Assembly: GCF_003334405.1 (NCBI RefSeq)
Contig: NZ_QOWM01000005.1
Direction: 5' to 3' (one strand)
DNA length: 64,000 nucleotides
Origin: Escherichia coli
Lineage (GTDB): Bacteria; Pseudomonadota; Gammaproteobacteria; Enterobacterales; Enterobacteriaceae
Positions 27,953 through 29,378 of the stretch are shown here, piece by piece. The notes beneath the pieces were generated by a model. That model did not search any database. It was given only the letters and a program-made list of their open reading frames with translations, and was not told the DNA's origin. A program made the position numbers and the translations under genes. How positions within the stretch are numbered: the first letter of the stretch is position 1; each line of letters opens with the position of its first letter.

Positions 27953-28081
27953 GATTCGGCTCTCCATTTTTTGTTGCCTTAGATATCAATGAAAATGAAA
28001 AATGGCAGCGGAACGGAAAATCTGTTTTGTGAAAACACACGCATAAAAATGTTTTAAATCGGGTTTTAATGGACTCACAAG

Positions 28082-29276
28082 GGAAGGTGCGAATAAGCGG
28101 GGAAATTCTTCTCGGCTGACTCAGTCATTTCATTTCTTCATGTTTGAGCCGATTTTTTCTCCCGTAAATGCCTTGAATCAGCCTATTTAGACCGTTTCTT
28201 CGCCATTTAAGGCGTTATCCCCAGTTTTTAGTGAGATCTCTCCCACTGACGTATCATTTGGTCCACCCGAAACAGGTTGGCCAGGGTGAATAACATCGCC
28301 AGTTGGTTATCGTTTTTCAGCAGCCCCTTGTATCTGGCTTTCACGAAGCCGAACTGCCGCTTGATGATGCGAAACGGGTGCTCTACCTTGGCACGGATGC
28401 TGGCTTTCATGTATTCGACGTTGATGGCCGTTTTGTTCTTGCGCGGATGCTGCTTCAAGGTTTTTACCTTGCCGGGACGCTCGGCGATCAGCCAGTCCAC
28501 ATCCACCTCGGCCAGCTCCTCGCGCTGTGGCGCTCCTTGGTAGCCGGCATCGGCTGAGACAAATTGCTCCTCTCCATGAAGCAGATTACCCAGCTGATTG
28601 AGGTCATGCTCGTTGGCCGCGGTGGTGACTAGGCTGTGGGTCAGGCCACTCTTGGCATCGACACCAATGTGGGCCTTCATGCCAAAGTGCCACTGATTGC
28701 CTTTCTTGGTCTGATGCATCTCCGGATCGCGTTGCTGCTCTTTGTTCTTGGTAGAGCTGGGTGCCTCAATGATGGTGGCATCCACCAAAGTGCCTTGGGT
28801 CATCATGACGCCTGCTTCGGCCAGCCAGCGATTGATGGTCTTGAACAATTGACGGGCCAGTTGATGCTGCTCGAGCAGGTGGCGGAAATTCATGATGGTG
28901 GTGCGATCCGGCAGGGCGCTATCCAGGGATAATCGGGCAAACAGGCGCATGGAGGCGATTTCGTACAGGGCATCTTCCATGGCACCGTCGCTCAGGTTGT
29001 ACCAATGCTGCATGCAGTGAATACGCAGCATGGTCTCCAGCGGATAGGGCCGTCGGCCATTGCCCGCCTTGGGATAAAACGGCTCGATGACAGCGGTCAT
29101 ATTCTGCCATGGCAGAATCTGCTCCATGCGGGAGAGGAAAATCTCTTTTCGGGTCTGACGGCGCTTAGTGCTGAATTCACTATCGGCGAAGGTGAGTTGA
29201 TGGCTCATGATGTCCCTCTGGGATGCGCTCCGGATGAAGATGATGATCTCATATCAGGAACTTATTCGCACCTTCC
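28082..29276 (-). mobile_element. IS5, complete copy of 1195 bp
   Basis: terminal inverted repeats ggaaggtgcgaataag (28082-28097) and cttattcgcaccttcc (29261-29276); flanking 4-mers caag and tgag are not a target duplication. Confidence 0.95.
28228..29208 (-). CDS. insH: IS5 transposase InsH
   Basis: 326-aa [38 protein letters not shown]. Confidence 0.95.
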
Positions 29277-29378
29277 TGAGCGGTAGTAAAGTCCTAAAAC
29301 TTTAACCTGCCGTTAATGTCAACCTTGCGTAATGCACAATTACGTAAACAATTAAAATTATAAATATAGGAGTCCGGC

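Follow-up and report, generated by a model that had tools for sequence, protein, structure and literature searches.

Among the systems closest to the locus described here are the fuc, glpFK and flhDC regions of Escherichia coli, in which an IS5 copy alters the activity of neighbouring promoters. In the divergent fucPIK-fucAO region, insertion of IS5 leaves one side activator-independent and the other non-inducible (PMC11894529, PMC5493358). The fusion promoter formed there depends on a flanking CRP site whose centre lies 61.5 bp upstream of the ins5A start, about 20 bp outside the IS end (PMC11894529, PMC5493358). In the orientation-specific cases glpFK, flhDC and fucAO, the ins5A promoter is distal and the IS5 3' end proximal to the activated promoter (PMC2753651). 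Published distances for activation run from -99.5 to -169.5, and activation of glpFK depends on helical phasing (PMC2753651).

The pathway concerned here is that of L-galactonate use, which in K-12 is described as organised in divergent lgoRT and lgoD operons. Growth on L-galactonate is lost in an lgoR (yjjM) deletion mutant (Reed 2006, cited by PMC5010248, PMC3588905 and PMC6150544), and lgoT is indispensable for growth on this substrate (bioRxiv 10.64898/2026.05.20.726482). The strain BL21(DE3), in which lgoR is frameshifted, showed no growth on L-galactonate in phenotype arrays. The regulator gene also received an IS186 insertion in an acid-evolved K-12 laboratory line, and yjjM/lgoR is a reported mutational target in the gut (PMC12332998).

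We analysed a 64-kb stretch of E. coli DNA, hereafter the window, in which an IS5 lies where lgoR would be expected (Table 1). A preliminary description of the window had placed lgoR/yjjM between lgoT and lgoD in K-12 and had proposed that the gene was lost in an IS5-associated deletion. This placement was correct, as the gene order in K-12 MG1655 is lgoT - lgoR (b4357) - lgoD. In the K-12 alignment, the window lacks NC_000913.3 4594825-4595859, exactly 1035 bp, and carries IS5 in their place. The collinear alignment blocks end exactly at the two IS5 ends, with flank identities of 98.6% and 98.4%, and this exact replacement between collinear flanks supports the proposed deletion. The missing segment consists of the 8 bp before the lgoR start codon (the Shine-Dalgarno region), the 915-bp lgoR itself and the first 112 bp of the 214-bp lgoR-lgoT spacer. 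No LgoR-like ORF was found, in agreement with the earlier reading of the lgoD-lgoT interval, and a tblastn search with K-12 LgoR against the whole 64-kb window gave a best E value of 2.2. Deletion of a pathway regulator in association with an IS is a known kind of event, and we regard this as ordinary transposon-associated gene loss. Our literature search found no paper describing this IS5/lgoR deletion allele.

Table 1. Features of the lgo locus in the window, and IS5 insertions at other sites of the same locus in other E. coli genomes.
Feature	Position in window	Strand	Basis and remarks
lgoD, L-galactonate oxidoreductase, intact, 340 aa	26930-27952	-	ORF list, RefSeq annotation of identical loci, K-12 comparison; 3 amino-acid differences from K-12
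Imported haplotype block carrying the IS5 deletion allele, minimum extent	27035-32180		SNP maps: dense vs MRE162, nearly SNP-free vs other carriers
lgoD-lgoR divergent control region, retained, 129-130 of K-12's 138 bp	27953-28081		K-12 alignment; ends at lgoR Shine-Dalgarno sequence
IS5-type element, ISKpn26-like, complete, 1195 bp	28082-29276	-	Both 16-bp terminal inverted repeats present
IS5 3'-end 'IB' module, 177 bp, A-tract bend and IHF site	28082-28258		Faces lgoD; 100% identical to K-12 IS5; module defined in PMC2753651
ins5A transposase gene, intact, 326 aa	28228-29208	-	ORF list; transcribed towards lgoD
lgoR-lgoT spacer, retained proximal 102 of 214 bp	29277-29378		Starts TGAG; junction cuts a weak CRP-like TGTGA half-site
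lgoT, L-galactonate:H+ symporter, intact, 453 aa	29379-30740	+	ORF list, K-12 comparison; 6 amino-acid differences from K-12; function from bioRxiv 10.64898/2026.05.20.726482
IS5 28 bp after lgoR stop, other genomes			TSD TTAG; ES10, 18AR0366, EC1 group (six genomes); three independent events, two IS5 variants, both orientations
IS5 inside lgoR 3' end, other genome			TSD CTAA; EC6868 (L009)
IS5 inside lgoT, other genomes			TSD TTAG; DLI.5a, AST46, THO-010 (L006)

Across complete E. coli genomes, the presence of lgoR is the rule. This gene for a GntR/FCD-family regulator was found in 5215 of 5426 genomes (96%), so direct adjacency of lgoD and lgoT is the arrangement neither of K-12 nor of most E. 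coli. Each of the two exact IS5 junctions occurs in 73 of the 5426 (about 1.3%), and we refer to these genomes as carriers. We also searched with lgoR joined to two 54-bp junction-spanning probes, whose seeds match only if the junction itself is present. This joined query matched 5290 genomes, compared with the 5215 that match lgoR alone and the 73 that have the junctions, and at least one of the extra matches was a short spurious plasmid hit (H225). Because 5290 is close to 5215 plus 73, the carriers and the lgoR-bearing genomes do not overlap, and by this genome-wide count comparison the carriers have no lgoR copy elsewhere. About 136 genomes have neither lgoR nor these junctions. An IS5 within this 3.9-kb neighbourhood was found in 81 genomes, compared with the 73 that have the exact junctions, and five of the eight extras are same-orientation canonical insertions. 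As a separate observation, the lgoR allele of about 800 of the 5426 genomes is only ~80-81% identical to that of K-12, a divergence far above that typical of core genes.

The element itself had been described as a complete IS5, and both ends (GGAAGGTGCGAATAAG at 28082 and CTTATTCGCACCTTCC at 29276), the full 1195 bp and the intact transposase gene bear this out. Its terminal inverted repeats, 16 bp each, fit the IS5 form GGAAGGTGCGAA(T/C)AAG, and end to end it is 94.4% identical in DNA to K-12 IS5A. It is an ISKpn26-type variant of IS5 (IS5 family, IS5 group). The predicted DDE transposase, Ins5A, matches the NCBIfam model NF033581 for IS5 family transposases (E = 1e-109; 366 bits, cut-off 140) and has seven amino-acid differences from K-12 InsH1. 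This is the only IS5 copy in the window, and RefSeq annotation of the locus gives merely an IS5-like transposase between lgoD and lgoT. A 4-bp target duplication with the consensus YTAR is expected of IS5. The 4-mers outside the element are CAAG on the left (28078-28081) and TGAG on the right (29277-29280); they are unlike, and the 4-bp duplication is missing, just as the preliminary description had stated. It follows that the junctions are not those of a simple insertion, while the identity of the element as IS5 is unaffected.

Some variation was seen within the element. In the window, the right inverted repeat at 29264 reads CTTATTCGC and forms a perfect repeat; in five other carriers it reads CTTGTTCGC, the classical-IS5 form. 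Three of the five private SNPs of the window in the 5.5-kb block lie inside IS5, and those within the element may derive from gene conversion by another copy. In the carrier strain J6 (L004 3632-4960), an IS10-type ISVsa5 sits inside the lgo IS5 and disrupts ins5A.

On either side of IS5, the structural genes remain but their upstream regions differ in how much was kept. The spacers had been given as 115 and 103 bp. With the annotated lgoD start, the left one is 129 bp, and the value of 115 holds only if counted from an ATG at 27967, to which the lgoD open frame extends beyond the annotated start; the right one is 102 bp. It had also been suggested that both genes now stand under IS5-adjacent promoter sequences. 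This is too simple for lgoD, whose native control region of 138 bp is retained over 129-130 bp; lgoT has just 102 of 214 bp upstream and is severed from the lgoR promoter. A consensus scan of the retained lgoD-lgoR spacer found CRP-like sites at 28028 and 28064, each with 8 of 10 consensus matches. The same spacer contains (28041-28058) the 12-mer TAAAAATGTTTT, which also occurs in the K-12 lgoR-lgoT spacer and may be a shared regulatory site. That second copy of TAAAAATGTTTT falls just within the deleted part, ending 3 bp before the right breakpoint. No known RNA families were found in the lgo region.

Taken together with the mutant phenotypes, the deletion probably means the loss of inducible L-galactonate use, with lgoD and lgoT intact but non-inducible. 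Since LgoR is required for growth on L-galactonate, the two genes would no longer be inducible in its absence. Furthermore, with the activator deleted and 1.2 kb of IS5 placed between the lgoR promoter and lgoT, induction should be abolished. Carriers are therefore expected, most likely, to be L-galactonate-negative or severely impaired. The lgo locus has decayed elsewhere too: lgoT has an internal stop at codon 279 in the EC1/EC6868 lineage, in addition to IS5 at two different sites of the locus. The same pattern takes in an IS1 deletion in strain F5, the IS186 insertion of the laboratory line and the about 136 genomes that have neither lgoR nor these junctions. The IS5 allele is probably another, near-neutral case of this recurrent decay. 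The expected outcome is a likely strain-level difference in the use of L-galactonate (lactone), a trait that Biolog assays cover as standard and that strain-specific metabolic models include.

The alternative that survives best is regulatory rewiring, in which IS5 substitutes for LgoR, and we consider it unlikely. Under this explanation, the 3' IB module would activate the native lgoD promoter, or ins5A transcripts would read into lgoD, while expression of lgoT would come from a promoter within the 102 bp that it has kept. Either the whole pathway or just LgoD would thereby escape the need for LgoR, and an advantage so gained would explain the spread of the allele. Several features of the element are consistent with such a role. 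The first 183 nt show no differences from K-12 IS5A, so that the IB region is identical to the K-12 activating module, and it is oriented towards lgoD in the activating sense. The distance of 129 bp between the IB module and lgoD (counted to the start codon) is within the published range of -99.5 to -169.5. In the fucAO case, transcription that starts at the ins5A promoter runs through the entire IS5 and into the operon behind it, with no need for FucR. Judged by its geometry, activation of lgoD by IS5 is possible. Still, the glpFK/flhDC-type arrangement of a proximal intact IB and a distal ins5A promoter is present for lgoD only. By contrast, lgoT faces the non-activating end of IS5 and has lost half of its upstream spacer, yet is indispensable for L-galactonate use.

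The promoter evidence mostly argues against rewiring. Counting for it, the minus strand bears a promoter-like TTTCCA-17-TATAAT (29385-29357) directed into ins5A; this single hit is native DNA, and the number of promoter-like hits was not above the shuffled expectation. No hybrid -35/-10 promoters were found at either IS5 junction. The right flank (29277-29378) contains no 16-mer that agrees with the CRP consensus TGTGA-N6-TCACA at 7 or more of its 10 positions. We therefore rejected a fucAO-type CRP fusion promoter, which cannot form here as described, and the ins5A promoter alone was essentially silent in the fuc work (PMC11894529, PMC5493358).

The population data can be read in both directions. 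The window and the six carriers compared all have intact copies of lgoD and lgoT, which is weak evidence against loss of function because diversity in the block is only about 0.1-0.2%. Likewise, neither gene is flagged as a pseudogene in seven carrier-locus annotations (including 14EC001, J6, QDFD216, OkiPb01684, STEC383 and AF3). The occurrence of the allele in at least five backgrounds could also be explained by selection. A neutral allele, too, could be carried between strains by recombination near the hsd/mrr region. An orientation bias at the nearby TTAG hotspot would have been a sign of selected activation, and we rejected this because both orientations occur; in one lineage, IS5 has hit the site beside an lgoT pseudogene, which argues for neutral hits and not for selected activation. 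The full scenario, in which the IHF/bent-DNA module of IS5 or ins5A read-through replaces the activator and the rewired cassette spread across E. coli phylogroups through homologous recombination by advantage, for example in the gut, appears more doubtful still. If it were true, the 'mobile enhancer' activation by IS5 so far seen in laboratory selections would be operating and spreading in natural populations, and the allele would reproduce, in nature and at population level, what fucAO and glpFK show in the laboratory.

To return to loss of the regulator as the preferred reading, the junctions themselves suggest how it came about. The other IS5 insertions at the lgo locus (6/6) have perfect 4-bp duplications of TTAG or CTAA, of the YTAR type (Table 1). 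Given these canonical duplications and the unlike flanks in the window, the CAAG/TGAG junctions are clearly not those of a primary insertion but secondary, the likely course being an insertion followed by an adjacent deletion. In the first step, IS5 would have inserted at CAAG within the lgoR ribosome-binding region. In the second, an IS5-adjacent deletion would have run rightwards from the ins5A-promoter end to TGAG, removing the duplicated copy of the target, the whole of lgoR and 112 bp of the lgoR-lgoT spacer. Of the two target copies so formed, the one that survived is probably the CAAG of the left flank. In the ISfinder target table quoted in PMC5493358, CAAG is a rare target, accounting for 1 of 24 recorded for IS5, and TGAG is not among them.

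This two-step history is the most economical one, and we infer the order of events because no precursor allele is present among the 5426 genomes. Specifically, no complete genome has a precursor with a CAAG duplication, and none has only one of the two junctions, the junction counts being equal (73 and 73). Concatenated lgoR and IS5 queries in the two orientations found 5 and 7 genomes with IS5 beside lgoR. These were rejected as the ancestor, as their insertions are at canonical TTAG/CTAA sites elsewhere, on different haplotypes or with another IS5 variant. One such TTAG, 28 bp past the lgoR stop, is in its own right an IS5 hotspot that was hit at least three independent times (L005 3444-4638, L007 3444-4638 and L010 2444-3638).

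A different origin of the junctions, by homologous recombination between two direct-orientation IS5 copies at CAAG and TGAG that deleted the 1035 bp between them, is in our judgement improbable. IS5 does hit the lgo locus repeatedly, and recombination between two IS copies would be expected to leave unlike flanks. However, this origin needs an insertion at TGAG, which is absent from the 24 recorded IS5 targets, at a locus where all six canonical insertions chose TTAG or CTAA, and no genome retains just one of the two junctions. We rejected as having almost no probability the last explanation, that a collapsed or chimeric join at an IS copy, a common site of misassembly, hides lgoR, because the identical junctions recur in 73 independently finished genomes from various laboratories, hosts and countries and the window flanks are collinear with K-12 on both sides of IS5.

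The identical, non-canonical junctions of the 73 genomes imply a single origin of the allele, and SNP maps show how it then spread. Only 7 SNPs separate the window from the carrier 14EC001 in 27-35 kb, against 10-56 SNPs per kb outside. On the left, the block shared with five carriers ends at about 27, 27, 27, 20 and 21 kb; its right-hand end is at about 35 or 38 kb. The reverse pattern was found with MRE162 and LR-48, two non-carriers in which lgoR is present: between 23.9 and 27.0 kb there are just 2 differences to the window, between 27.0 and 33.0 kb there are 67, and over 32.5-52.5 kb identity is 99.9%. Because the window is MRE162-like on both sides of the block, its strain acquired the block, here an imported patch of 5-7 kb, by homologous recombination.

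The haplotype block spans 5-8 kb (lgoD'-IS5-lgoT-tsr) and was found in at least five flanking backgrounds. Within it, six carriers have about a dozen differing sites in 5.5 kb, a diversity of about 0.1-0.2%. Beyond lgoD and lgoT lie opgB and tsr, and the carriers differ in their opgB alleles and in the contents of their hsd regions. We rejected descent of the carriers as a single clonal lineage, given that they are 1-2.4% apart in both flanks, that the block boundaries vary and that the flanks of the window match non-carriers. In several carriers, the lgo copy is the sole IS5-matching place on the chromosome, as would be expected if the IS had come in with its flanks through homologous recombination and not by transposition. 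The locus is a clean natural case of a regulator deletion allele that reached new chromosomes together with its IS copy, through homologous recombination of the DNA around them.

Other parts of the window differ among carriers as well. About 5 kb from the lgo block is a hypervariable region, which in the window (36200-38014, yjiA to mdtM) is only about 1.8 kb long. Between yjiA and mdtM, carriers QDFD216, STEC383 and AF3 annotate a BrnA/BrnT toxin-antitoxin remnant and an IS1, and their window alignments run to about 37750. The mrr-hsdRMS restriction cluster of carriers 14EC001 and OkiPb01684 is absent between these two genes in the window. Further to the left, at 17777-17863, is a single tRNA-Leu(CAG) gene, of which 14EC001, QDFD216 and STEC383 have three tandem copies and AF3 two; the state in the window looks like a copy-number collapse of a tandem array. 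Four tandem naRNA4/CssrE (REP325-type) units were found at 9404-9785 and one more at 17555-17637 beside the tRNA-Leu gene; every one of these exceeded the Rfam gathering score.

Deletions adjacent to an IS are classical for IS1, IS10 and IS903. The allele described here resembles them in having an intact IS without its target duplication, and a gap in reference DNA that starts exactly at one IS end. It differs in that the element is IS5, for which we found no documented adjacent-deletion mechanism in the literature. A parallel exists at the same locus, where E. coli strain F5 has an IS1A-adjacent deletion of lgoR. F5 and ES10 share the left IS1A junction in the lgoD-lgoR spacer (F5 L003 3230-4098; ES10 L005 1680-2450). 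In ES10, lgoR is intact behind a 9-bp IS1A duplication, whereas in F5 the right end of IS1A abuts codon ~273 of lgoR and the first ~817 bp of the gene are gone. For the IS5 allele, no precursor with a target duplication was found among the 5426 genomes. In the BL21(DE3) frameshift and the IS186 insertion of the acid-evolved line, the same regulator was lost, but a gene remnant and the operon architecture were kept. In the allele described here, by contrast, lgoR is wholly removed and the IS is placed between the lgoR promoter and lgoT.

The IS5-activated systems can be compared in the same way. In fuc, a simple insertion with a TSD left fucR in place, whereas here the activator gene itself is deleted, and the CRP site that the fuc fusion promoter requires is absent. 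With glpFK and flhDC (PMC2753651), the locus shares an identical IB sequence at a comparable distance and in the same orientation towards the lgoD promoter region. Overall, we find the allele modestly interesting because it arose cleanly and only once, because a short haplotype block has carried it horizontally, and because its geometry resembles those of fucAO and glpFK.
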